Part shown: positions 1-14,640 of the stretch, in pieces
Position numbering within the stretch: position 1 is the first letter of the stretch
Layout: every line of letters begins with the position of its first letter
Source: a virus
Lineage: Duplodnaviria; Heunggongvirae; Uroviricota; Caudoviricetes
IMG/VR virus record: IMGVR_UViG_2630968342_000015
Length of the DNA stretch: 14,640 nucleotides
Reading direction: 5' to 3' (one strand)
Program-made: the position numbers and the translations under genes
The notes under the pieces: model-generated
Databases searched by the model: none
What the model saw: the letters and a program-made list of their open reading frames with translations, nothing else
Told to the model about the DNA's origin: nothing

Positions 1-1218
1 ATGAACAAACTGAGCGATACCTTGCTAAGGAAACTTCATGGTAAGCCAGCGGAGAAAAACACGTTTTATAGTGATGGCGGAAACCTGAGCGTGAAATATT
101 TAACATCAGGGAAATTGACCTGGTATTTCACATACAGGGCCGGAACGGGAAGGGAGACACGACCCGAACGCATTAAGCTGGGAAGTTATCCTGATCTGAG
201 CCTGAAAGCAGCCAGGGAAAAAGCCGCACAGTGTCGCACATGGCTGGCTGAGGGGAAAAATCCACGTCATGAGATGAATTACACCGTACAGGAAGCGTTA
301 AAGCCCGTAACGGTTGGCGATGCGCTCACCTACTGGCTTGAGTATTACGTAAAGGAAAACCGCGTGGATTATATCGCCCTGAAAAGGCGACTTAATAATC
401 ACGTAATACAGCAGATTGGTGCTATGCCGCTGGATAAATGCGAGCTACGGCACTGGCTGGCCTGTTTTGACCAGGTGGCAAAGCGAACGCCTGTTACTGC
501 CGGATTCGTGCTACAGGCGTGCAAACAGGCGCTTAAGTTCTGCCGTAGGCGGCGCTATGCAATCAGCAACGTTCTGGACGATCTGAACGTGGCGGACGTT
601 GGGAAAAAACCGGATATAAGCGAACGTGTCTTAAGTAACAAAGAACTTGGCGAATTATTGCAGGCACTGGACAAAAAAATATTCTCCCCTTACTACGTCG
701 CGTTAATCCGCCTCCTGATTGTCTTCGGAGCCAGAACGGTAGAACTGAGGTTATCGGAGATCGGAGAGTGGGATTTTACGGAAATGCTATGGACCGTTCC
801 GAAGGAGCACAGCAAAACGAAGGTCGCAATATTCCGGCCCATACCGGAAGCGATCCTGCCGTTCGTCACGCAGCTGGTGGAGCAGAACAGGCACACGGGC
901 TTATTGCTGGGGGAAGTGAAACAGGAGGCCAGCGTATCGCAGTATGGAAGATTAGCGCACAGGAGGCTTAATCATCCTCACTGGTCACTGCATGACATCC
1001 GGCGCACCTTTACAACCATGCTGAACGATTTAGGCGTTGATCCGCATGTCGTGGAGCAGCTTACAGGCCACCAGATGCCAGGAATGCAGCGAGTTTATAA
1101 TCATTCCCGTTATCTGGATGCTAAACGCAATGCGCTGGATATGTGGACGGAGCGGTTAGGGATACTGGCGGGAACACATGAAAACGTAACCACGCTACCA
1201 GTAGCCAGAAGAAAATAA
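1..1218 (+). CDS. int: P4-family tyrosine integrase (site-specific recombinase)
   Basis: 405-aa ORF. The N-terminus has the P4-type arm-binding pattern (LSDTLLRKL...FYSDGGNLSVKY...W.FTYR...RIKLGSYPDLSLKAAREKA). The catalytic region has ARTVELR, HDIRRT and a C-terminal tyrosine region (RVYNHSRYLD). Confidence 0.95.
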   Translation: MNKLSDTLLRKLHGKPAEKNTFYSDGGNLSVKYLTSGKLTWYFTYRAGTGRETRPERIKLGSYPDLSLKAAREKAAQCRTWLAEGKNPRHEMNYTVQEALKPVTVGDALTYWLEYYVKENRVDYIALKRRLNNHVIQQIGAMPLDKCELRHWLACFDQVAKRTPVTAGFVLQACKQALKFCRRRRYAISNVLDDLNVADVGKKPDISERVLSNKELGELLQALDKKIFSPYYVALIRLLIVFGARTVELRLSEIGEWDFTEMLWTVPKEHSKTKVAIFRPIPEAILPFVTQLVEQNRHTGLLLGEVKQEASVSQYGRLAHRRLNHPHWSLHDIRRTFTTMLNDLGVDPHVVEQLTGHQMPGMQRVYNHSRYLDAKRNALDMWTERLGILAGTHENVTTLPVARRK

Positions 1219-1258: not shown

Positions 1259-1310
1259 GAACAGATACAACGTGCAACAATGAGCAACAATGCGGAACAA
1301 CTACGAACAA
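1259..1310 (-). repeat. Array of six TTGTTC-like motifs, five of them on a 10-bp phase (minus-strand orientation); candidate protein-binding array
   Basis: The plus strand reads gaacag/atacaa/caacaa/caacaa/gaacaa/gaacaa, with the last five ending at 1270, 1280, 1290, 1300 and 1310. The reverse complement of 1285-1310 matches 6862-6887 at 22 of 26 positions. Confidence 0.7.
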
Positions 1311-1592: not shown

Positions 1593-1781
1593 GTGTTAAG
1601 CACTGATCGGTTTATACGTGAAAAAGAATGCGAAAAGCTAACAGGCCTTAGCCGCTCATGCCGCTACCGCCTGGAAAAGGCCGGACAATTCCCATCACGT
1701 CGTAAACTTAGCGGTCGTTCCGTTGGCTGGTCTTTATCCGAGGTTCTGGCCTGGAAGGATAGCTGCAAGGCAGTTCATTAA
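1593..1781 (+). CDS. alpA: AlpA-family (MerR-like wHTH) regulator/excisionase
   Basis: 62-aa ORF with a GTG start 5 nt after AAGGGGG. Matches the Phage_AlpA pattern (EKLTGLSRSCRYRLEKAGQFPSRRKLSGRSVGWSLSEVLAW). Sits downstream of int as in P4-like islands and PICIs. Confidence 0.85.
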   Translation: MLSTDRFIREKECEKLTGLSRSCRYRLEKAGQFPSRRKLSGRSVGWSLSEVLAWKDSCKAVH

Positions 1782-5250: not shown

Positions 5251-5475
5251 ACTGTTCACCACTGTTCACCCTGTCATAAATATCTTTTGTATCAGTATGT
5301 TATAGGGTGAACAGTTATTTATGAACTGTTCACCAAACTATTCACTGTTCACCTTTTTGATTGTTTATTGAGCTTCAAGGGTGAACAGTGGTGAATAGTT
5401 GGTGAATAGTTTTTGTGAAACTGTTCACCCCTTAATATTATGAATTAAAAGATAAAATATCAAAAGGTGAACAGG
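5251..5475. repeat. Origin of replication: about 11 copies of the 10-bp iteron ACTGTTCACC in both orientations around AT-rich DNA
   Basis: Plus-oriented copies at 5251, 5261, 5325, 5344 and 5420, with a degenerate one at 5337. Inverted copies (GGTGAACAGT/GGTGAATAGT) at 5306, 5380, 5390, 5401 and 5466. AT-rich stretch at 5430-5465. Confidence 0.8.
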
Positions 5476-6188: not shown

Positions 6189-6461
6189 ATGGTACATGAC
6201 CGCATAGCGGAAGAACTCGAGGCGAAAGGCTTTTACCGGAGGGCGGCGGCGCGATGGGGTGAAGTCATGCTGCTGGTGGAGACAGACAAGGAACGGCATC
6301 AGGTTACGATGCGACGGCTGGAATGTTCCAGGAAGGCACAGAAGCCACCGGAGCCGCCGGATAACTTCGGAGACCTGAGAAAGGCAGTAGATCGCACTTA
6401 TGCTGAAATGGGTATAGATGGTGTAAGCGATGAAATATGGCGTAATTACCCAGACAGCTAA
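6189..6461 (+). CDS. PerC-family-like transcriptional regulator
   Basis: ATG at 6189 after GAGGGGG; 90 aa. The N-terminal AEELEAKGFYRRAAARWGEVM resembles the PerC/Pch family signature (recall only). Confidence 0.5.
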   Translation: MVHDRIAEELEAKGFYRRAAARWGEVMLLVETDKERHQVTMRRLECSRKAQKPPEPPDNFGDLRKAVDRTYAEMGIDGVSDEIWRNYPDS

Positions 6462-6465
6462 TCAA

Positions 6466-6490
6466 CAGCCGGAGAAATCCGGCTTTTTTT
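6466..6490 (+). terminator. Rho-independent terminator
   Basis: AGCCGGA-GAAA-TCCGGCT followed by seven T. Confidence 0.85.
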
Positions 6491-6585
6491 GCACCAGTTG
6501 AAACGGTATGGCGCATTACCGGGTTTTCGTCACGGTCAGGCATAGTTACTATCTGAAACAAACAGACACAACAGAGGAAAAAACA

Positions 6586-6810
6586 ATGCCGATGAAATTT
6601 GATGAGATATTAAAACAGCGTGATAAATACCATGCTGACAACATGGAGACGATGAGCATCAATGATTACCGCGCATTCCTGGAGACGGGCGCACTGATTG
6701 AAAAGGATCAGCATGGTTTTGTGAGATGTGCTCTGTCCGGTGAAATGCTGGCGGTAAATCCTGAACAGATAGATGCATTGATAGAATTTCTGAAAGGGAT
6801 CAGGGACTGA
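6586..6810 (+). CDS. Hypothetical protein (74 aa), moron-like cassette
   Basis: ATG at 6586, 8 nt after AGAGGA. Flanked by two near-identical terminators. Confidence 0.55.
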   Translation: MPMKFDEILKQRDKYHADNMETMSINDYRAFLETGALIEKDQHGFVRCALSGEMLAVNPEQIDALIEFLKGIRD

Positions 6811-6819
6811 GCACGCATA

Positions 6820-6843
6820 CAGCCGGAGCAATCCGGCTTTTTG
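6820..6843 (+). terminator. Rho-independent terminator (near-duplicate of 6466-6490)
   Basis: AGCCGGA-GCAA-TCCGGCT followed by TTTTT. Confidence 0.85.
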
Positions 6844-6861
6844 TCATTTTTTGTAAATTAT

Positions 6862-6896
6862 TTGTTCGTGGTTGTTCCACGTTGTTCACTGACAGG
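6862..6896 (+). repeat. Three TTGTTC motifs on a 10-bp phase upstream of the head operon; candidate activator/Rep-binding site and promoter region
   Basis: TTGTTC at 6862, 6872 and 6882. The 15-mer TTGTTCCACGTTGTT (6872-6886) recurs exactly at 14374-14388. A possible -10 TATTTT lies at 6904-6909. Confidence 0.65.
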
Positions 6897-6964
6897 ATCG
6901 GCATATTTTACCCGAACTGAATCATGAGTATTCTCGCCCGTGGTGCCAGGACGCTGGGGCCACT

Positions 6965-7010
6965 TTCCCGCCTGTTAATGTGCTCGCCAATATTCATTAC
7001 CAGGCGGGAA
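6965..7010 (+). other. Long-range 10-bp inverted repeat in the head-operon leader
   Basis: TTCCCGCCTG (6965-6974) pairs perfectly with CAGGCGGGAA (7001-7010) across a 26-nt loop. Confidence 0.6.
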
Positions 7011-7064
7011 AACGATCGGTGCGATTGCTGATTTCCTTATGAAAAACGGTTGAGTTTTTGCCGC

Positions 7065-7102
7065 GTCCTGGAGTTCCTTACTTAACCCCAGGACTTTTTT
7101 TT
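7065..7102 (+). terminator. Intrinsic terminator directly abutting the capsid start codon
   Basis: GTCCTGGAGTT/AACCCCAGGAC gives an 11-bp stem with one mismatch and an 8-nt loop. It is followed by eight T (7095-7102) and then the ATG at 7103. Confidence 0.75.
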
Positions 7103-8260
7103 ATGCCGAGAATAATCGAATTACGCCAGCAGAAAACCGCCATTAAAAATCAGATGCGCGACATGCTGGAGAACGCGGAAAAAGAAAACCGCAGCCTTAA
7201 CGATGCAGAGGGCGCAAAATTTGACGAATTACGCGCTAAAGCTGAATCCCTCGATAAAGACATTTCCCGCCTTGAAGCCATTGCAGACGAAGAGCGCAGC
7301 AAGCCAGGTAAAAGCAGCCAGACCACTGACCCGGCAGAACTCCGCAACTACATCCTGACAGGTGAAACCCGCGCATTAAGTACAGGCGTTCCCGCTGATG
7401 GTGGTTATACCGTTATCCCCGAACTGAACACCGAAATCATGCGAATGCTGACGGATGAATCCACCATGCGCCGCATCTGTACCGTGAAGAAAATCAGCAG
7501 CAACGAGTTTAAGCAGCTTGTTTCCGCTGGCGGTGCGACCGTTAACCACGGTGAAGAGGGTAAGACACGCGAACAGACCAGCACCCCGCAGATTAACGAG
7601 GTGAGCATTAAGCTGTATCCGGTCTATGCGTACCCGCGCACCACACAGGAAATCGTGGATTTTTCCGATGTGGACATCCTTTCATGGCTGACGGGTGAGA
7701 TTGGCGACACCTTCACGGAAACCGAAGAAAGCGATCTGGTTGTGGGCGACGGTGACAAAAAAGCAAAAGGTTTTTTATCCGTACCCCGTGCAGAGAAGAA
7801 CGACAAAGAGCGTGATTTTGGTACGTTGCAGGTAATTAAACCTTCCGAATCTCTGGCGTGGACATCTGCGGACCCGCTGATCGACCTGAAATTTGCATTA
7901 CGTAAAAAATACCGCAAAAACGCGGTCTGGGTGGTTAACTCCACGACGGCGGCAAAACTTCAGAAGGTGAAGAACGCGAACGGTGATTACATCTGGCGCG
8001 ACCGTTTACAGGCGGGTGATCCTGATACGTTGCTGGGCCTTCCGGTCGAATATCTGGAGTTTATGCCTGATAACGTTATTGCCCTGGGTGACTTCAAACG
8101 CGGTTACTACATTGTTGATCACGAAACAGGTGTTCGCACCAGACCGGACAACCTCACAGAGCCGGGCTTCATCAAAATTTTCACGCAGAAATATTTAGGC
8201 GGTGGCGTGGTGGATTCGAACGCGATCAAGATTCTGGAACTGCCACAGGACGACGATTAA
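7103..8260 (+). CDS. HK97-family major capsid protein with an N-terminal delta/scaffold-like coiled coil
   Basis: The N-terminus MPRIIELRQQKTAIKNQMRDMLENAEKENRSLNDAEGAKFDELRAKAESLDKDISRLE is typical of HK97-type MCP delta domains. The body has GGYTVIPE... and ...LVVGDGDKKAKGFL motifs. Confidence 0.9.
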   Translation: MPRIIELRQQKTAIKNQMRDMLENAEKENRSLNDAEGAKFDELRAKAESLDKDISRLEAIADEERSKPGKSSQTTDPAELRNYILTGETRALSTGVPADGGYTVIPELNTEIMRMLTDESTMRRICTVKKISSNEFKQLVSAGGATVNHGEEGKTREQTSTPQINEVSIKLYPVYAYPRTTQEIVDFSDVDILSWLTGEIGDTFTETEESDLVVGDGDKKAKGFLSVPRAEKNDKERDFGTLQVIKPSESLAWTSADPLIDLKFALRKKYRKNAVWVVNSTTAAKLQKVKNANGDYIWRDRLQAGDPDTLLGLPVEYLEFMPDNVIALGDFKRGYYIVDHETGVRTRPDNLTEPGFIKIFTQKYLGGGVVDSNAIKILELPQDDD

Positions 8261-8270
8261 CAGCATACAG

Positions 8271-8299
8271 AAGGGGCTTAAAAGCCCCTTTAGTGTTTT
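8271..8299 (+). terminator. Hairpin with an interrupted U-tract after the capsid gene; probable partial terminator or attenuator
   Basis: AAGGGGCT-TAAA-AGCCCCTT (8-bp stem) followed by TAGTGTTTTA. Confidence 0.5.
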
Positions 8300-8314
8300 A
8301 TGGGTGAAAAAATT

Positions 8315-8872
8315 ATGAAGAGTATGGAAATCCGGTCATCGGAAATCACCACCAGCGCCAGCAACACGCTTACAGGCTACGTTGTTCGCTGGGATAAGCT
8401 TTCAGAGCTGCTATGGGGGGAGTTTTACGAAAAATTCCAGCGGGGAGCGTTTACTGAATGGCTTGCGGCGGGTAATGACGTTCGCGGCCTGTATGAGCAT
8501 GACCACAGCATGTTGCTGGGGCGTACCCGTTCCGGCACGCTGAAACTGGAAGAGGACGAAACAGGGTTACGCTTTGAACTGACCCCACCGGATACCAGTA
8601 CAGGGCGCGACGTTATCGAACTGGTTAAGCGTGGGGACATCTCGGGGATGAGCTTTGGCTTTCGCTCCCGTAAGGATGTATGGGATACCACAACAGATCC
8701 ATGCGTGCGCACCGTGCTGGTGGCGGAACTGTACGAAATTACCGTTACATCGGTACCGGCTTACCCTGATTCCGGCGTGGAGCTGGCCCGCCGTTCCCTG
8801 TATGAGCAGCACCCCGAAAAAATGCCGCGTGCGGATAATCGCCGCTGGTGGGTGGATTTAGCGGGGGTGTGA
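8315..8872 (+). CDS. HK97-family prohead protease (peptidase S78/U35)
   Basis: Family-typical pattern MEIRS...LTGYVVRWDKLSE...FQRGAF...DVRGLYEHD...LGRTRSGTLKLEEDETGLRFELTPPDTSTGRDVIELVKRGDISGMSFGF. The start is uncertain (8300, 8315 or 8324). Confidence 0.9.
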   Translation: MKSMEIRSSEITTSASNTLTGYVVRWDKLSELLWGEFYEKFQRGAFTEWLAAGNDVRGLYEHDHSMLLGRTRSGTLKLEEDETGLRFELTPPDTSTGRDVIELVKRGDISGMSFGFRSRKDVWDTTTDPCVRTVLVAELYEITVTSVPAYPDSGVELARRSLYEQHPEKMPRADNRRWWVDLAGV

Positions 8873-8873
8873 T

Positions 8874-10085
8874 ATGTGGCTTTTCAGAAGAAAAAAAGAG
8901 CAGCGCAGCATGACGCTTGATGAATTTATGGCGCTGGCTGGCACATCGAACACGGGGGCGGGTGAGTACGTATCATCGGGGACAGCGGAATCACTGCCCG
9001 CCGTCATGAACGCCGTGACGGTCATCTCTGAGGCGGTGGCTACCATGCCGTGTTACCTGTACCTGGTACGCAATGAGAAGGGGAAGGAGGCCCGCGAGTG
9101 GCTTGATTCTCATCCGGTCGATCACATCCTCAACGAGCGCCCGAACGCGTGGCAGACTCCCTACCAGTTTAAGCGAATGATGATCCGCCACTGCCTGTTA
9201 AACGGTAATGCTTATGCGGTGATTCAGTGGGGGCGTGATGGTTTTCCGGTGGCTTTACATCCTTACCCGCCGCAGTCGGTGAACGTGGAGCAGACAGGCG
9301 AACACAACTGGCGCTACTGCATCACTGACGCCTACACCGGAAACACCCGCAACTATTTACCGTGGGAGGTTCTCCACCTTCGTTACTCCACGGATGACGG
9401 TTTTATGGGGCGCTCACCTGTAACCATCTGCCGCGAATCGCTGGGGCTTGGGCTGGCCCAACAACGCCACGGCGCGAGCGTGATGCGTGATGGCATGATG
9501 GCGGCAGGGGTTATCACGTCAGGCGAATGGCTGGACGGCGTGAAGGGCAAACAGGCATTAGCCGCACTGGAACGCTACAAAGGGGCCAGAAACGCCGGAA
9601 AAACGCCCATCCTTGAAGGGGGTATGAGCTATCAGCAGCTGGGCATGAGTAATCAGGATGCTGAATGGCTGGCCTCCCGTCGCTTCACCATTGAAGACAT
9701 CGCCCGAATGTTCAACGTCTCGCCGATTTTTCTGCAGGAATACAGCAACAGCACCTACAGCAATTTCAGCGAGGCAAGCCGCGCATTTCTCACCATGACA
9801 ATGCGCCCGTGGCTGGCGAACTTTGAGCAGCAGATAAAAAACGCCCTGCTGGTGGCCTCGCCTGTACCTGGTATCCGGTATCAGGTGGAGTTTGACAGCG
9901 CGGACCTGTTACGGGCCACACCTGGCGAACGCTTTGCCACCTATGAACGCGGCATCAAATCCGGCGTTATGTGCCCGAACGAAGCCCGCGAACGTGAAGG
10001 GCTGTCCCCGCGTGATGGTGGTGATGAGTTCAGCCAGGCATGGAAACAGGAAGTAAAAATCAGCGAGGGAGAAAAACCGGAATGA
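8874..10085 (+). CDS. HK97-family portal protein
   Basis: 403-aa ORF with the size and overall sequence character of Phage_portal family proteins. SD GGGGG lies 6 nt upstream. Sits within the head module. Confidence 0.85.
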   Translation: MWLFRRKKEQRSMTLDEFMALAGTSNTGAGEYVSSGTAESLPAVMNAVTVISEAVATMPCYLYLVRNEKGKEAREWLDSHPVDHILNERPNAWQTPYQFKRMMIRHCLLNGNAYAVIQWGRDGFPVALHPYPPQSVNVEQTGEHNWRYCITDAYTGNTRNYLPWEVLHLRYSTDDGFMGRSPVTICRESLGLGLAQQRHGASVMRDGMMAAGVITSGEWLDGVKGKQALAALERYKGARNAGKTPILEGGMSYQQLGMSNQDAEWLASRRFTIEDIARMFNVSPIFLQEYSNSTYSNFSEASRAFLTMTMRPWLANFEQQIKNALLVASPVPGIRYQVEFDSADLLRATPGERFATYERGIKSGVMCPNEAREREGLSPRDGGDEFSQAWKQEVKISEGEKPE

Positions 10086-10420
10086 ACATAGGGCGACTGC
10101 GTGACAGGGTAACGATTCAGACCCTGAAACAGACCAGGGATATAACCGGCGAAATACTCGAAACGTGGGAGGACGGTCACACACTCTGGGCAAGCGTGAA
10201 CATGATCAGCAGCAAGGAGGCCATTTCATCGGGTGCAGAGCTGGCGATTGGTACCGTAAGGATCTGGATACGGTACCGGAAGGACATCAATGCCACCAGC
10301 CGGATAAAGGTCAGTACGGGGCCGCTGGCGGGGCGTGTACTGAATATCATCGGGCAGCCGCTGCCGGATGCCGCCAGGACACGCCTTGAAATTCTTTGTC
10401 GTGAGGGCGCGGAAAAATGA
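10082..10420 (+). CDS. Head-closure / head-tail adaptor protein (SPP1 gp16-like, Phage_H_T_join)
   Basis: ATG at 10082 overlaps the portal stop (ATGA). MNIGRLRDRVTIQ...WEDGHTLWASV...IRYRKDI...ILCREG is the typical family pattern. Confidence 0.8.
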   Translation: MNIGRLRDRVTIQTLKQTRDITGEILETWEDGHTLWASVNMISSKEAISSGAELAIGTVRIWIRYRKDINATSRIKVSTGPLAGRVLNIIGQPLPDAARTRLEILCREGAEK

Positions 10421-10713
10421 CAGAAGAACTTATCACCCTGGAAGAAGTGAAACTCCATTGCCGCATCGATGGCGACGAGGAAGACCAGTTAATCAGCGGA
10501 TACATCGCCGCATCGCTTGAGGCGTGCCAGATACACATAGGCAGGCGCTTTGATGACGGGCTGGAGTTCACGCCAGCCATAAAGATTGGCTGCATGATGT
10601 TTATCGCTCACCTGTATGAAAATCGCCAGATTGTCGCGGATAACGCAAAAACACGCGTACCCATGACGATTGGTGCACTCTGGACGGCTTACCGTGATGT
10701 GGGGGTGTACTGA
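10417..10713 (+). CDS. gp6-like head-tail connector protein (Phage_connect_1)
   Basis: ATGA overlap with the previous gene. ITLEEVKLHCRIDGDEEDQLISGYIAASLEACQIHIGRRF is the family-typical N-terminus. Confidence 0.8.
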   Translation: MTEELITLEEVKLHCRIDGDEEDQLISGYIAASLEACQIHIGRRFDDGLEFTPAIKIGCMMFIAHLYENRQIVADNAKTRVPMTIGALWTAYRDVGVY

Positions 10714-11153
10714 TGCCGTGGCAACCATTAAGACGATGCACAGAACCAGGCTGTAACAGGCGCGTGAAGTCCGGCAAGTGTGAGGAGCACAGGCGGGCGG
10801 CATGGCGTGCAGAGGATGCCAGACGAGGACACCGCCGCGCGCGTGGGTACTCCAGACAGTGGGACAAATACCGCGCCATGTATCTGAGTAAAAACCCGTT
10901 ATGCGTGCGATGCCTTGAGAAGGGGATATATACGCCCGCCGTGGTGGTGGATCACATTATCCCGATTAATGGCGGTGATGATGTTCTCTTCTGGCCCGAA
11001 TGGAACCATCAGCCATTGTGCCAGGCGTGCCATAACCAGAAAACGAAATGGCTTGATCCGGCAACAAAAAGCAAGCGTGCCGCAGGTGGATTTCGTGAAG
11101 AGGAAGAACGGGCCGCTAACCGCAATAACTGGATGTATGACGCTGATGAATGA
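10713..11153 (+). CDS. Phage HNH endonuclease (packaging-associated)
   Basis: N-terminal Cys cluster CTEPGCNRRVKSGKCEEH and HNH core DHIIPINGGDD...NHQPLCQACHNQKT. Sits upstream of terS as in HK97-like cos phages. Confidence 0.9.
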   Translation: MPWQPLRRCTEPGCNRRVKSGKCEEHRRAAWRAEDARRGHRRARGYSRQWDKYRAMYLSKNPLCVRCLEKGIYTPAVVVDHIIPINGGDDVLFWPEWNHQPLCQACHNQKTKWLDPATKSKRAAGGFREEEERAANRNNWMYDADE

Positions 11154-11319
11154 GCGGGAACAAAACCGCCTTATCCGTGGACTTATAAGGCAGCGTGACG
11201 CATGGAAGACACAGGAAACAGGGCATAAAGATAAAGCGTCAGGACGCGCAGAACGCATCACAGCGAAGCGATTAACCGACCGTGACCGCGAGGTTATGGA
11301 ATGTTTCCGCAATCGCTGA
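11146..11319 (+). CDS. Possible small charged protein (57 aa) in the HNH-terS gap
   Basis: ATG at 11146 overlaps the HNH stop (ATGAATGA). It is the only open frame across 11153-11319. No clear SD and no family recognised. Confidence 0.3.
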   Translation: MNEREQNRLIRGLIRQRDAWKTQETGHKDKASGRAERITAKRLTDRDREVMECFRNR

Positions 11320-11441
11320 TGAGGCTGTATGACGGGGTGGGGGGCGTTTTCAGGACAAACCCGACCCCGCCGGGCACCGACCGCCTCCTCAAATTTTTAT
11401 GCACGGGAATTTTTTGAAAAATAATCTGACGAAAAATAAGC
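11320..11441. other. Candidate cos region
   Basis: Lies between HNH and terS, the HK97-like position for cos. G-rich (11331-11346) and C-rich (11361-11389) segments are partly complementary and are followed by AT-rich DNA. Positional inference only. Confidence 0.35.
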
Positions 11442-11798
11442 ATGGCAAGACCACCGAAAGCCCCCGCCTACCTGGATGACATCGCCGTGAAGCAGTGGCG
11501 GGAAAAATCGCGGCAGCTTGCGGAACGGGGAGACCTGACCCCCGCCGACTGGAGCAATCTGGAACTGTATTGTGTCAACTACTCCATTTACCGGAAAGCC
11601 GTCGCAGACCTTGCGGCGCGCGGGTTCAGCATTGTTAACAGTCAGGGCGGCGAGAGCAGAAACCCCGCATTAAGCGCGAAATCAGACGCTGAAAGGGTGA
11701 TGATAAAAATGGCCTCCTTGCTCGGTTTTGACCCGATAAGCCGCCGTAAAAACCCACCGGAAACAGAAGAAGAGGACGAGCTTGACCGCCTGGAATAA
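11442..11798 (+). CDS. terS: Terminase small subunit, P27 family
   Basis: Family-typical pattern PPKAPAYLDDIAVKQWREKSRQLAERGDLTPADWSNLELYCVNYSIYRKA...NPALSAKSDAERVMIKMASLLGFDPISRRK. Confidence 0.85.
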   Translation: MARPPKAPAYLDDIAVKQWREKSRQLAERGDLTPADWSNLELYCVNYSIYRKAVADLAARGFSIVNSQGGESRNPALSAKSDAERVMIKMASLLGFDPISRRKNPPETEEEDELDRLE

Positions 11799-13443
11799 GT
11801 ACGCAGAAGACGTAAAAACGGGCAAAATTCAGGCCTGTAAACGGTTAAAACAGGCCGTTAAACGGTACTTTTCGGACCTTAAAAGCCCCCTTTACACGTT
11901 CGATCGTGAGGTTGTGGATCGGTTTATTGCCTTTTCCAGGGTGTGCCCGCACGTAAAAGGGCCGATGCGTGGCAGACCCATTGAGCTGGAGCCGTGGCAG
12001 CAGTTCGCCTTTGCGTGCATCCTCGGCTTTAAGGTTAAGGCCACCGGACGGCGCAAATATACGAGCGCCTTTATCGAAGTGCCGCGCAAAAATGCTAAAT
12101 CAACGACCGCCGCGATTCTGGCTAACTGGTTTCTGATTATGGAGAACGGTCAGCAGGATATTTACACCGCAGCGGTGAGCCGTGACCAGGCGAGGATCGT
12201 ATTTGATGATGCGCGTCAGATGTGCATTTTATCCCGACCGTTACGCAGGCGGGTGAATATTCAGGCGCATAAGGTGATACACCCGAAAACCAACAGCCTG
12301 TTAAAGCCGCTGGCAGCAAAAGCGGCAACTATCGAGGGCACAAACCCCAGTCTTTCTATCGTGGACGAATACCACCTACACCCCGACAACGGCGTATATT
12401 CTGCGCTTGAACTGGGGATGGGGGCACGTCCCGAAGGGCTGTTATTTGCCATTACCACATCGGGAAGTAACGTCGTTTCAGCCTGTAAGCAGCATTATGA
12501 TTATTGCTGCCAGATCCTGGACGGCGAAGAGGTTAACGAATCGCTTTTTGTGCTGATTTACGAACTGGACGACGAAAACGAGGTTGATGATCCGGAGATG
12601 TGGATAAAGGCGAACCCTAATATCGATGTTTCCGTGGATCGTGAAAAACTGGCCTCAACCATTCAGAAAGCGCGGGGTATTCCGTCGCAATGGGTGGAGA
12701 TGATGACAAAGCGATTTAATATCTGGTGTCAGGGGACTACCCCGTGGATGGGTAATGGTGCATGGGCTGAGTGTGCCGGAACGTTCACGGAGGAAGATTT
12801 ACACGGTCAGGAGTGTTACGCGGGGCTGGACTTATCATCAACCAGCGATATTTCCAGCGTGTGCTATGCCTTTCCGGTCGGTAAAACCATTATGATGATT
12901 TCCCGTCATTATCTGCCGGAGTTCCAGCTACAGAACCCCGCCAATAAAAACCGCGCTGTCTATCGTCAGTGGGCTAAAGCAGGCTGGATACGCACAACGC
13001 CTGGCGACTGCATTGATTACGACCGGATCAGAGATGACATCATGCAGGACGCGGAGAAATTTAATATCAGGCTGGTGGGCTTTGATACGTGGAACGCCAC
13101 GCATCTCAGAACGCAATTACAGGGGGCAGGTTTTGAGGTGGAGCCGTTCCCGCAAACCTACCTCAGATTCAGTCCGGCGGCGAAATCGTTCGAAGTTTTT
13201 GTTAACCGCAGGGTGATTGTGCATCGTGGCGATCCGGTGTTGTCCTGGTCGATGAGTAACGTCGTGATGCAGAGTGACGCGAACGCCAATATCAAGCCGA
13301 ACAAGAAAAAATCACCGAACAAGATAGACCCGAGCGTGGCGGCGCTGATGGCGTTTGGTACATTCCAGGCAGAGCATGAGGATTTTGCTTTTGATATAAG
13401 CGACAGCCACCGCCAGAAACTGGAAGAATTTAGCGGGGTGTAA
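11782..13443 (+). CDS. terL: Terminase large subunit (Terminase_1 family)
   Basis: 553 aa. TTG start with GAGGA 5 nt upstream; no ATG or GTG is available between the upstream in-frame stop and 11782. Walker A-like VPRKNAKST and Walker B-like LSIVDEYH. Confidence 0.9.
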   Translation: MTAWNKYAEDVKTGKIQACKRLKQAVKRYFSDLKSPLYTFDREVVDRFIAFSRVCPHVKGPMRGRPIELEPWQQFAFACILGFKVKATGRRKYTSAFIEVPRKNAKSTTAAILANWFLIMENGQQDIYTAAVSRDQARIVFDDARQMCILSRPLRRRVNIQAHKVIHPKTNSLLKPLAAKAATIEGTNPSLSIVDEYHLHPDNGVYSALELGMGARPEGLLFAITTSGSNVVSACKQHYDYCCQILDGEEVNESLFVLIYELDDENEVDDPEMWIKANPNIDVSVDREKLASTIQKARGIPSQWVEMMTKRFNIWCQGTTPWMGNGAWAECAGTFTEEDLHGQECYAGLDLSSTSDISSVCYAFPVGKTIMMISRHYLPEFQLQNPANKNRAVYRQWAKAGWIRTTPGDCIDYDRIRDDIMQDAEKFNIRLVGFDTWNATHLRTQLQGAGFEVEPFPQTYLRFSPAAKSFEVFVNRRVIVHRGDPVLSWSMSNVVMQSDANANIKPNKKKSPNKIDPSVAALMAFGTFQAEHEDFAFDISDSHRQKLEEFSGV

Positions 13444-13456
13444 TGAGGTCAGCAGC

Positions 13457-13738
13457 ATGACAGAAGCCGAAATAACGGGATTAATCCGCCGCGTTGCCGG
13501 AATCAGCCAGCAGGCTGACGAACAGGCCACGCAGCCGGACAGCGTGACAGCCGAAAACTATGCGCGTGTTGTTGCTGAGGTGATGCGCCGTGATGGTATA
13601 GAACTTAATGGCGTGGATATGCGCAACATACGAACCAGAGTTCTTGAGTTGCTGGCCTACCGTCGCCGCGTGGAGATGTATCGGGAGAAGGAGAAAATAA
13701 CGTACCACTGGAAGAAGCCGGAGCGGTTGCGGCGGTAA
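13457..13738 (+). CDS. Hypothetical protein (93 aa), last gene of the packaging operon
   Basis: GAGGT 7 nt upstream of the ATG. Protein-like composition; no family recognised. Confidence 0.6.
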   Translation: MTEAEITGLIRRVAGISQQADEQATQPDSVTAENYARVVAEVMRRDGIELNGVDMRNIRTRVLELLAYRRRVEMYREKEKITYHWKKPERLRR

Positions 13739-14031
13739 CTGGTTGATATTCCCGACGGACCAAAAATGGGTGGCTACATCCCTCGCTTCTGAGGACTGTT
13801 AACAAGCTGCCTGAAAGACAGTCACAAACTACGAAATTTTCGCAGTTTAATTAATGATCAGCTTAATCGCTAACCCGCTGATATTTTCGGAAACCTCAAT
13901 TTGAGGAAGTCGGCGCGGTAACTCGCTGAACTTTAAGCAAAGTGCAAAATTGCGCTTGCTGAATAATCATTATGATTACGCAGATGATTAAGGAATGACC
14001 GAAGGCGGAAATTCGCCTGTGGTTAATGGGG

Positions 14032-14051
14032 GAGTTGCAGATCTGCAACTC
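14032..14051. repeat. 20-bp perfect palindrome GAGTTGCAGATCTGCAACTC
   Basis: Read directly; the sequence equals its own reverse complement. Confidence 0.9.
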
Positions 14052-14071
14052 GACCATGAAACTACGGAAAC

Positions 14072-14142
14072 TACCCGTAGTTTGGGTAGTAAGAGTAACA
14101 CCCAGATTTTGGGTCTTACTCGTGATACCCAAATTTGGGGTA
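14072..14142. repeat. Three 17-bp palindromic sites (T)ACCC-N7-GGGT(A) with centres exactly 27 bp apart; operator-like or tandem RNA hairpins
   Basis: TACCCgtagtttGGGTA 14072-14088, cACCCagattttGGGTc 14099-14115, TACCCaaatttgGGGTA 14126-14142. Centres at 14080, 14107 and 14134. Confidence 0.75.
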
Positions 14143-14363
14143 TCAGTGGCAACCATAACGACTTTCGTTACGGTTGATGCTTTTACCCCATTGGGGGAAA
14201 GGTATTACGATAATCATAACACCTACCGAACAGGTAAAGCCCACCAGCCTGATTAACGTTTAACCGGAAAAAAATTCCGGTAGGTGGGGATCCCCATATC
14301 GACATTAACGCCCCTCATGAATTGGTGCGCTTCCCCCTGGAAAGATGATCCGCCTGTATATTT

Positions 14364-14398
14364 CTTGTGTCTATTTGTTCCACGTTGTTTCATACAGT
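14364..14398 (+). repeat. Three TTGT-core motifs on a 10-bp phase near the right end; homolog of 6862-6896
   Basis: TTGTGT 14364, TTGTTC 14374, TTGTTT 14384. Shares an exact 15-mer with 6872-6886. Confidence 0.65.
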
Positions 14399-14407
14399 GC
14401 ACCGAAC

Positions 14408-14430
14408 GGTGTAGTCACTGGTGTAGTCAT
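14408..14430 (+). repeat. Tandem direct repeat GGTGTAGTCA x2 (12-bp period); candidate integrase arm-type sites
   Basis: Copies at 14408-14417 and 14420-14429, about 70-90 bp from the presumed junction. Confidence 0.4.
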
Positions 14431-14473
14431 TTTGCGATTTTTGGCACTTTTTGCGGTGAAAATTATTTAATTA

Positions 14474-14486
14474 AATCAACGTGTTA
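14474..14486 (+). promoter_or_regulatory. IHF consensus match (WATCAANNNNTTR) with an A/T-rich upstream tract
   Basis: AATCAACGTGTTA matches every consensus position. It is preceded by AAAATTATTTAATTAA and lies about 15-25 bp from the presumed junction. Confidence 0.45.
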
Positions 14487-14640
14487 TGTGAAATAAGTTA
14501 TATATAACAGCAATAAATAATGCGAGAATAAACGGCACGATGATCTCGGCGGCAAAACGGATACCGCAGAGAATAATGACCAGCATTCCCAACATAATGA
14601 CGATTTTTAGGCCATTGAGCGTGATGATCGGCTTTGCCAT
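14476..14640 (-). pseudogene. tqsA: Truncated 5' fragment of a tqsA/ydgG-like AI-2E (PerM) family permease gene, disrupted by the island
   Basis: The minus-strand ATG at 14640 gives [46 protein letters not shown], which matches my recollection of the E. coli TqsA N-terminus. It then diverges (YNLFHITR) to a stop at 14476-14478. Too short (54 aa) to appear in the ORF track. Confidence 0.55.

Follow-up and report, generated by a model that had tools for sequence, protein, structure and literature searches.

The stretch of DNA analyzed here, hereafter the window, comprises 14,640 nucleotides of one strand from IMG/VR virus record IMGVR_UViG_2630968342_000015. Judged from its genes and junctions, it represents a capsid-forming phage-inducible chromosomal island (cf-PICI) inserted into the tqsA gene of Escherichia coli. 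Satellites of the PICI and cf-PICI kinds are widespread and mobilize genes for virulence and defence. The life cycle of Gram-negative PICIs hinges on AlpA, and no paper was found on where this protein acts on DNA. The present analysis concerns four arrays of short TTGTTC repeats in the island, which may serve as AlpA operators. The annotation was taken from RefSeq NZ_CP060083, an identical locus in E. coli G1/2. Comparison of the junctions with the empty site of strain IAI1 delimits an insert of 14.5 kb, with the 9 bp attachment-site (att) core ATAACAGCA present at both junctions, and the host match starts at 14504 in more than 5000 genomes. Pfam and RefSeq identify a P4-type integrase (Int), a 62-residue AlpA, a D5/P4 α-type primase-helicase, a single-stranded DNA-binding protein, and PerC, together with morphogenesis and packaging genes for an HK97-type capsid, a protease, a portal, two connectors, HNH, TerS, and TerL. 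No tail genes were found in the window by Pfam scans or in the RefSeq annotation, and no known RNA families or tRNAs were detected in it. The combination of int, alpA, a primase/replicase, a capsid-to-TerL set, and a dedicated att site, with neither tail nor lysis genes and a total size of about 10–15 kb, agrees with the published definition of a cf-PICI (10.1101/2022.09.08.507074). Since the window begins within the int coding region, whose annotated GTG start lies 12 nt upstream (RefSeq NZ_CP060083), the left attachment site (attL) is not part of it and was read in the full locus. The elements central to the analysis are listed below.

1..1218, plus strand: int, P4-type tyrosine integrase with an N-terminal arm-binding domain (Pfam Arm-DNA-bind_3 and Phage_integrase)
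1261..1310, minus strand: array A, five units TTGTTCGTAG TTGTTCCGCA TTGTTGCTCA TTGTTGCACG TTGTATCTGT, in the int–alpA spacer
1593..1781, plus strand: alpA, 62-residue winged-helix protein and proposed array binder (Pfam Phage_AlpA, PF05930, E 1.9e-17)
6841–6891, plus strand: array B, five units TTGTCATTTT TTGTAAATTAT TTGTTCGTGG TTGTTCCACG TTGTTCACTG
6862..6891, plus strand: core of array B, TTGTTCGTGG TTGTTCCACG TTGTTCACTG, 211 bp upstream of the capsid ATG (7103)
14365..14404, plus strand: array C, in the P arm of the right attachment site (attR), TTGTGTCTAT TTGTTCCACG TTGTTTCATA (14365–14394) and a degenerate fourth unit CAGTGCACCG
14408..14431, plus strand: tandem 12 bp pair of the P arm, GGTGTAGTCACT GGTGTAGTCATT, putative integrase arm-type sites
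14504..14512, plus strand: att core ATAACAGCA at the right junction, where tqsA resumes (IAI1 empty site compared with both junctions)
62–101 bp upstream of window position 1: attL array, TTGTTCCAGC TTGTTTCACG TTGTAGCCCT TTGTGCAACG, the fourth array, read in the full locus

The four arrays share one unit and one period. The consensus derived from 36 distinct units is TTGTTC(C/G)(A/T)N(G/A), with the core GTTC(G/C), and the units follow each other at 10 bp in all four arrays, except for a single step of 11 bp. Array A lies 43–92 bp past the int stop codon and approximately 280 bp upstream of alpA. In array B, the first unit overlaps the T-tract of a terminator, and the second is a separately conserved box. 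The first-pass annotation had described B and C as two sites in the same orientation, each with three TTGT motifs on a 10 bp phase, which share a 15-mer and bracket the capsid module. By direct reading and a pattern search, both copies of the exact 15-mer TTGTTCCACGTTGTT are indeed on the plus strand, at 6872–6886 as described and at 14375–14389, one nucleotide away from the 14374–14388 assigned to the second copy. The count of three motifs describes array C, apart from its degenerate fourth unit, but not array B, which has five. The third related array placed near 1259–1310 was recovered as array A, at 1261–1310 on the minus strand with five units, and the distance of about 110 bp from the right junction was accurate, as array C ends 110 bp before the core. 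The bracketing is correct as to position; it is nevertheless an incomplete view, because the island has four arrays, two of which belong to the att arms.

With up to three mismatches allowed, TTGTTCCACGTTGTT matches the window seven times against an expectation of 0.66, a number reached in none of 200 dinucleotide shuffles, and all seven matches are confined to arrays A, B, and C. These three are the sole chains of at least three phased TTGT units in the window. The 19.6 kb locus contains only four such chains, all at functional sites. By the same criterion, flanking host, prophage, and P4 DNA yields one chain in 88 kb, and distant cf-PICI loci yield two in 1.2 Mb. On the minus strand, at 6548–6571, the short TTGT-type pair TTGTGTCTGT TTGTTTCAGA overlaps the ribosome-binding region of the open reading frame (ORF) 6586–6810; it resembles the first units of array C and could be a weak fifth site or a chance match. 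Array A adjoins a perfect 16 bp palindrome, CAGTATGCGCATACTG, at 1237–1252. The palindrome is kept in all islands with a five-unit array A and is absent from the six-unit type (EcCICFT073, L052, L095), and it could be the site of a helper-dependent factor that induces alpA.

The positions of the arrays are conserved in homologous islands, as the first-pass annotation had asked of them. Across loci found by homology (L004, L005, L006, L007, L008, and EcCICFT073), arrays recur at attL, in the int–alpA spacer, upstream of the capsid gene, and at attR. Protein identities and array positions in islands at other integration sites are as follows.

L004, cspD/clpS site: Int 75%, AlpA 62%; arrays at attL, upstream of the capsid gene, and at attR
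L005 and EcCICFT073, roxA/phoQ site: Int 91%, AlpA 94–97%; arrays at attL, in the int–alpA spacer, and at attR
L007, rcnR site: Int 67%; array at attL

Array A is found at the same position and on the same strand with five units in L005, L008, L019, L050, L093, L107, L120, and L128, and with six in L052, L095, L117, and EcCICFT073. Array C and its 12 bp pair stand at the right end of L005, L010, L050, L052, L060, L095, L128, and EcCICFT073, with variant array units in L004, L086, and L118. A motif-first scan of viral contigs returned 120 loci; about 30 of them were related islands, in which the four position classes recurred, and this set carries ascertainment bias. The test of array B was therefore repeated through a search with the capsid protein. 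All of the 40 loci at 97% capsid identity or above have array B, 210–230 bp upstream of the capsid start; the array is present in one of eight loci at 66–70% identity and in none of six at 33% or below. It is absent from islands without this capsid block, and it is retained in L004 and L029 despite Int identities of 75% and 41%. Departures from the four position classes are few: L052 and L060 have a TGTCAC-type chain in the right arm, L086 has an additional array immediately after alpA, and a chain occurs in an unrelated phage (L082, L099). In L029 (IMG/VR contig 2778261094_000010), whose integrase is 41% identical and whose capsid-upstream array is the same as that of L004, two tandem alpA paralogues encode the recognition helices GRRHRA and SRSRRW.

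The arrays are also independent of several other island functions. The replicase of L005 is of the RepA type, with AAAGTGAGG iterons and without TGTTCACC, yet L005 retains its arrays, and islands without their own HNH, TerS, and TerL keep array A and those at attL and attR. PerC was ruled out as the binder, as L052 and L095 lack PerC and still carry the arrays.

Each of the two att arms combines an array with a tandem pair of 12 bp repeats. At attL, the order is core, 83 bp, array, pair, 22 bp, and int; the array directly abuts CGGTGTAGTCACTGGTGTAGTCAC, and the int start follows 22 bp later. At attR, array C (14365–14404) is followed by the pair (14408–14431), 72 bp, and the core (14504–14512). 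The identical pair (GGTGTAGTCACT twice) follows an array in the same orientation in both arms. The arms align column for column as blocks of approximately 70 nt, in which TGT recurs unchanged at every tenth column and CGGTGTAGTnAnTGGTGTAGTnAnTT does not vary; array C thus belongs to the att arm. Two predicted reading frames cross these arms, a hypothetical gene on the minus strand across attL (WP_001332680.1; 2319–2501 of L001) and a mechanical 70-residue ORF across array C (14284–14496); both lie on regulatory att-arm DNA and are probably not genes.

The 12 bp pair covaries with the arm-binding strand of Int. Four pair motifs correspond to four strand variants, independently of AlpA identity.

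GTAGTCACT: Int arm-domain strand KYLTSGKL
GTAGTTAAT: Int arm-domain strand RHSTxGLL
GTGGTCAGT: Int arm-domain strand KHSKGGKL
GTATTGCA: Int arm-domain strand RVSKYGCV

The pair does not track AlpA: L004 and L005 have the same pair at AlpA identities of 62% and 97%, and L004 and L007 have different pairs despite 90% AlpA identity. The layouts of P4 and CP4-57 match this arrangement. P4 carries annotated 12 bp tandem "attP arm sequence repeats" in both arms, as the island does. In CP4-57, the founding AlpA system, the attL region (L129, K-12, 630–740) shows GTCCCG, GTCCGA, and TCCGA units and then a 12 bp pair, TAGGCCCA twice, before intA; an inverted copy lies near the intA start codon, as in P4. 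Because the pairs covary with Int and not with AlpA, and because the P4 and CP4-57 layouts match, comparative sequence analysis points to them as integrase arm-type sites of the P4 type. The TTGTTC units behave differently. They are constant across the four Int arm-domain classes, while the AlpA recognition helix keeps R-x-x-R-Y, and they persist from 100% to 67% Int identity and partly at 41%, without covariation with the Int arm domain.

Array B stands at the head of the capsid block, between a terminator and a structured leader.

~6819–6843, plus strand: intrinsic terminator that ends the upstream operon; its T-tract enters the first TTGT of array B
6851..6861, plus strand: conserved box TTGTAAATTAT, at the head of the capsid block
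6892..7102, plus strand: structured capsid-operon leader, ending in the hairpin GTCCTGG...CCAGGAC and T8 directly before the ATG

Of 80 distant cf-PICI loci (L193–L272), 71 have a TTGTAAAT(TAT) box upstream of the capsid gene, irrespective of the units that come next. Those units differ by lineage (GTTCG/GTTCA, TTACCC, TTTTCG, and others, at 10–11 bp), and strict TTGT arrays are almost absent from the 80 loci. The box TTGTAAATTAT is thus probably an element separate from the TTGTTC units, as its sequence conservation suggests. The RNA fold of 6905–7105 has an energy of −70.3 kcal/mol (z = −5.0 against shuffles). The leader hairpin buries the only Shine–Dalgarno-like AGGA and looks like an attenuator or a translational gate. 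The terminator at ~6819–6843 has a twin at ~6465–6490; the two are 24 nt long, 96% identical, and flank the small ORF 6586–6810. No consensus σ70 promoter was found in 6450–7110, and the search for consensus promoters at array B, array C, and attL gave nothing above chance. The absence of a consensus promoter near array B fits a dependence on an activator. No capsid-operon promoter is named in the accessible parts of the published work on EcCICFT073 and EcCIEDL933.

The island itself encodes a plausible partner for such arrays. An AlphaFold2 model of AlpA (mean confidence, pLDDT, 84) has a helix-helix-wing-helix fold. Its best structural match is the GIsul2 excisionase 8c3t (TM-score 0.81–0.88), a PDB entry for which no associated paper was found, and RdfS and TorI also match. 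AlpA is identical at 58 of 62 positions (94%) to AlpA of EcCICFT073, the prototype PICI, which, like the prototype cf-PICI EcCIEDL933, belongs to the island family of the window. EcCICFT073, with an Int 91% identical, has a different morphogenesis block and no array B, and its largest array, of six units, sits in the int–alpA spacer. AlpA of EcCICFT073 activates a PalpA reporter, and its overexpression leads to Int-dependent excision and replication (PMC6092414). AlpA is needed for the induction and transfer of PICIs and cf-PICIs (PMC6092414; 10.1101/2022.09.08.507074). No paper was found that defines the binding sites of a PICI AlpA.

The arrays show several hallmarks of directionality-factor sites: at least three direct repeats one helical turn apart, a location in the att arms, and a small winged-helix protein of an excisionase family (alpA) encoded by the element. 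Direct repeats spaced by one helical turn are bound by excisionases in a cooperative fashion that bends the DNA, and some of these proteins double as promoter regulators (PMC7498355). The closest counterpart is TorI of KplE1 (CPS-53), a 66-residue winged-helix excisionase that also represses intS; three of its sites in attL, I3, I4, and I5, follow a 10 bp period in the interval from the att core to int and adjoin the intS −35 element (PMC2951348). In the K-12 sequence, these sites read GTTCG-N5-GTTCG-N5-GATCG. The TorI core (GTTCG/GATCG/GTCCG) and the 10 bp period are those of the island arrays. A similar pattern, GTTCG-N5-GATCG-N5-GTTTT, is read in attL of the distant cf-PICI L203. The systems also differ: TorI is 26% identical to AlpA over 42 residues (pairwise E 1e-4) and is not in Pfam Phage_AlpA, IntS of KplE1 is not a P4-type integrase, and the portion of the report accessible describes TorI sites in attL only (PMC2951348), whereas the island has arrays in both arms and at two internal sites.

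Vis of P4 is the closest characterized homologue of AlpA (45% identity, both Phage_AlpA). P4 needs Vis in order to excise, as stated in PMC6092414 (its reference 45), and P4 Int and Vis both repress Pint (PMC7286903). In P4, a 10 bp phased chain of three to four TCCG units abuts the int-side 12 bp arm pair, where the island has TTGTTC instead. This chain is reached in one of 500 shuffles, is the sole such chain in the genome, and is confined to the int side. Vis reportedly also regulates the late promoters of P4; no phased TCCG chains were found at these promoters, the sole chain being at attP. The recognition helix reads SRSTIY in Vis and SRSCRY in the island AlpA, and P4 and CP4-57, with a TIY motif in the helix, carry TCCG-type units in place of TTGTTC. 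Among unrelated families, Apl of phage 186 and Cox of P2 bind five to seven direct repeats at 10–11 bp spacing, at att and at a promoter, in a cooperative head-to-tail manner with bending (PMC7498355). Apl and Cox repress the lysis–lysogeny switch, whereas PICI AlpA is an activator, and AlpA, unlike either, would here also control a structural-gene operon. The AlpA antiterminator element of Pseudomonas aeruginosa was considered as a model and ruled out, because the island AlpA has 62 residues and its sites are multi-unit arrays. Pseudomonas AlpA is a larger Q-like protein of eight helices with DNA-contact residues numbered up to 142, which binds as a monomer to a single 6 bp element between −35 and −10 and enters the RNA exit channel (PMC9371919).

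On this basis, we infer that the four 10 bp phased TTGTTC arrays are operator arrays for the island AlpA, with a probability of roughly 0.6. The suggestion that the repeats are common sites for one AlpA-type regulator is thereby favored, by their conserved positions, their placement at points where an excisionase or regulator would be expected to act, their independence from the integrase, the replicase, and PerC, and the TorI-like core and period, with AlpA as the presumed occupant. Induction by a helper phage would raise AlpA, whose monomers could occupy consecutive helical turns in a head-to-tail row that bends the DNA. An AlpA filament beside the Int-bound pairs of attL and attR might give the excisive intasome its form and could also influence the int promoter. 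In the int–alpA spacer, array A would give the positive autoregulation measured in EcCICFT073, and at array B, AlpA would switch on an activator-dependent promoter downstream of the twin terminators. A single protein would thus couple excision, self-amplification, and capsid/terminase expression.

Several points weigh against this assignment. In most of the islands compared, AlpA and Int have diverged in parallel, so the constancy of TTGTTC fits AlpA as the binder but does not prove it, and among these islands none was found with the same Int and a clearly different AlpA specificity. AlpA of EcCICFT073 left a Pint reporter unchanged, though an array adjoins int (PMC6092414). Array A lies 130–200 bp upstream of the best alpA promoter-like sites and points in the opposite direction, and the L004-type islands, with AlpA at 62%, have no array A of at least three units. 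The variation of the units after TTGTAAATTAT in distant cf-PICIs, which in the one island checked (L211) do not match its own attL, means that array B may answer to another factor, or that the box may be the key element; array B may be more than a site for AlpA. It is also unusual for an excisionase to have arrays in both att arms. Some of the loci compared had been identified by means of the motif.

If AlpA is the binder, a shared operator motif at four sites bears on how one protein couples excision, self-induction, and capsid production, on whether AlpA is a true PICI directionality factor or an activator only, and on how swapped capsid modules stay regulated. More tentatively, AlpA might be a master switch that reads one operator code, GTTCG-type units at a 10 bp phase, at both att arms, its own promoter, and the capsid/terminase operon. 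The capsid block might then be a plug-in cassette with an AlpA-responsive region (box TTGTAAATTAT, array, and terminator-ended leader), and the duplicate arms of about 70 bp might support a symmetric excisive complex, unlike the one-armed complexes of lambda and KplE1. Should this hold, the capsid block would move between islands with its own AlpA-responsive control region. Phased arrays of this kind are a known class, and a link of AlpA to a cf-PICI capsid operon would be a new but modest addition. In practice, an array followed by a 12 bp pair marks both att arms and may aid the annotation of island ends.

Of the other explanations, the one that survives best holds that the TTGTTC arrays are a second class of Int arm-type sites, with A and B as Int-dependent regulatory sites. 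Arm-type sites can be tandem direct repeats at about 10 bp spacing, two of the arrays do lie in att arms beside the 12 bp pairs, and autoregulation of Int through att sites is known for P4 (PMC7286903) and for KplE1 (PMC2951348). The units nevertheless stay unchanged over four Int arm classes (Int 41–100%), unlike the adjoining pair, which already fills the role of P4-type arm repeats, and the distance to the core is 1.3 kb for array A and 6.9 kb for array B. We therefore regard this explanation as unlikely.

A host factor that reads phased repeats, either of the OmpR/PhoB class, such as ArcA or PhoP, or a nucleoid protein, would account for a motif that is constant while the island proteins vary. 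Part of array B, TGTAAATTATTTGTTC, may loosely resemble an ArcA-type direct repeat. Against such a factor, the period is 10 bp and not 11, the arrays are rare both in host DNA (one in 88 kb) and in distant islands of other hosts (two in 1.2 Mb), and a position right beside the Int arm sites of both arms is typical of a directionality factor encoded by the element. A host binder is accordingly quite improbable.

Similarly improbable is a promoter at array C, or under its control, from which transcription would cross the closed attP junction into int once the island has circularized, as had been proposed for a right-end site. Array C points toward the core and int, and AlpA is cited in PMC6092414 as raising intA expression in CP4-57. 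With an array and a pair of its own 22 bp from int, attL makes such a promoter unnecessary; moreover, no rightward promoter-like site was found near C, and AlpA had no effect on Pint in EcCICFT073 (PMC6092414).

The repeats had further been considered a footprint of the modular acquisition of the capsid/packaging block, and the homology breakpoints bear directly on this idea. In blastn comparisons with islands lacking the HK97 block, homology with the window ends at 6842 in L005 and at 6489 in L050 and stops at the terminator at ~6819–6843; it resumes exactly at 13457 in L005, L050, and L052. The block thus spans about 6843–13456, with array B as its first element, and is followed by a backbone segment.

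13457..14503, plus strand: conserved right arm with a 93-residue ORF, an ORF-free stretch, and the attR arm; common to islands without the capsid block

Module boundaries and repeats coincide at the left edge, at array B, and not at the right edge, at 13457. Scars or recombination hot spots of block insertion would be consistent with B starting exactly at the left breakpoint (6842/6843) and with its movement, together with the block, into islands of very different int, alpA, and rep (L029, L122, L124). Array C, by contrast, lies approximately 900 bp beyond the right edge of the block, in the backbone right arm that block-less islands still carry (L005, L050, EcCICFT073), so the repeats do not mark the insertion. 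C and its flanks are near-identical in islands that never had the block (L005, L050, L052, L095, L128, EcCICFT073), and the motif also occurs at attL and in the int–alpA spacer. The acquisition footprint is already contradicted for C and is very improbable as an origin for the B and C repeats.

The primase-helicase, whose C-terminus had been named as a possible binder of the repeats, is 51% identical to P4 α over 452 residues of the helicase part, and the sequence provides it with iterons of a different motif.

5253–5473, both orientations: origin-like iteron cluster with eight exact TGTTCACC and GGTGAATAG variants, directly 3′ of the primase-helicase gene

TGTTCACC is the P4 type I iteron; all eight intergenic copies fall within this cluster, and arrays A, B, and C contain none. 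Where related islands have a different replicase, this place is taken by different iterons, AAAGTGAGG in the case of L005. It is hardly credible that this enzyme uses the arrays as replication iterons (a second site like P4 crr), despite the likeness of TTGTTCAC to TGTTCACC and the kinship with P4 α, since the true cluster is separate and the arrays survive alongside different replicases and iterons, or that they are terminase recognition sites, which is already contradicted by islands that keep arrays without their own HNH, TerS, and TerL.

The packaging region and the right arm share one further feature. An 18 nt perfect inverted repeat, ATCAGGCTGGTGGGCTTT / AAAGCCCACCAGCCTGAT, has one copy at 13066–13083, inside terL, and the other at 14236–14253, in the ORF-free right arm, where about 0.002 such pairs would be expected by chance according to a rough estimate. 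The right-arm copy also occurs in islands without terL (L050, L128). The repeat could reflect long-range RNA pairing or a packaging-related site.

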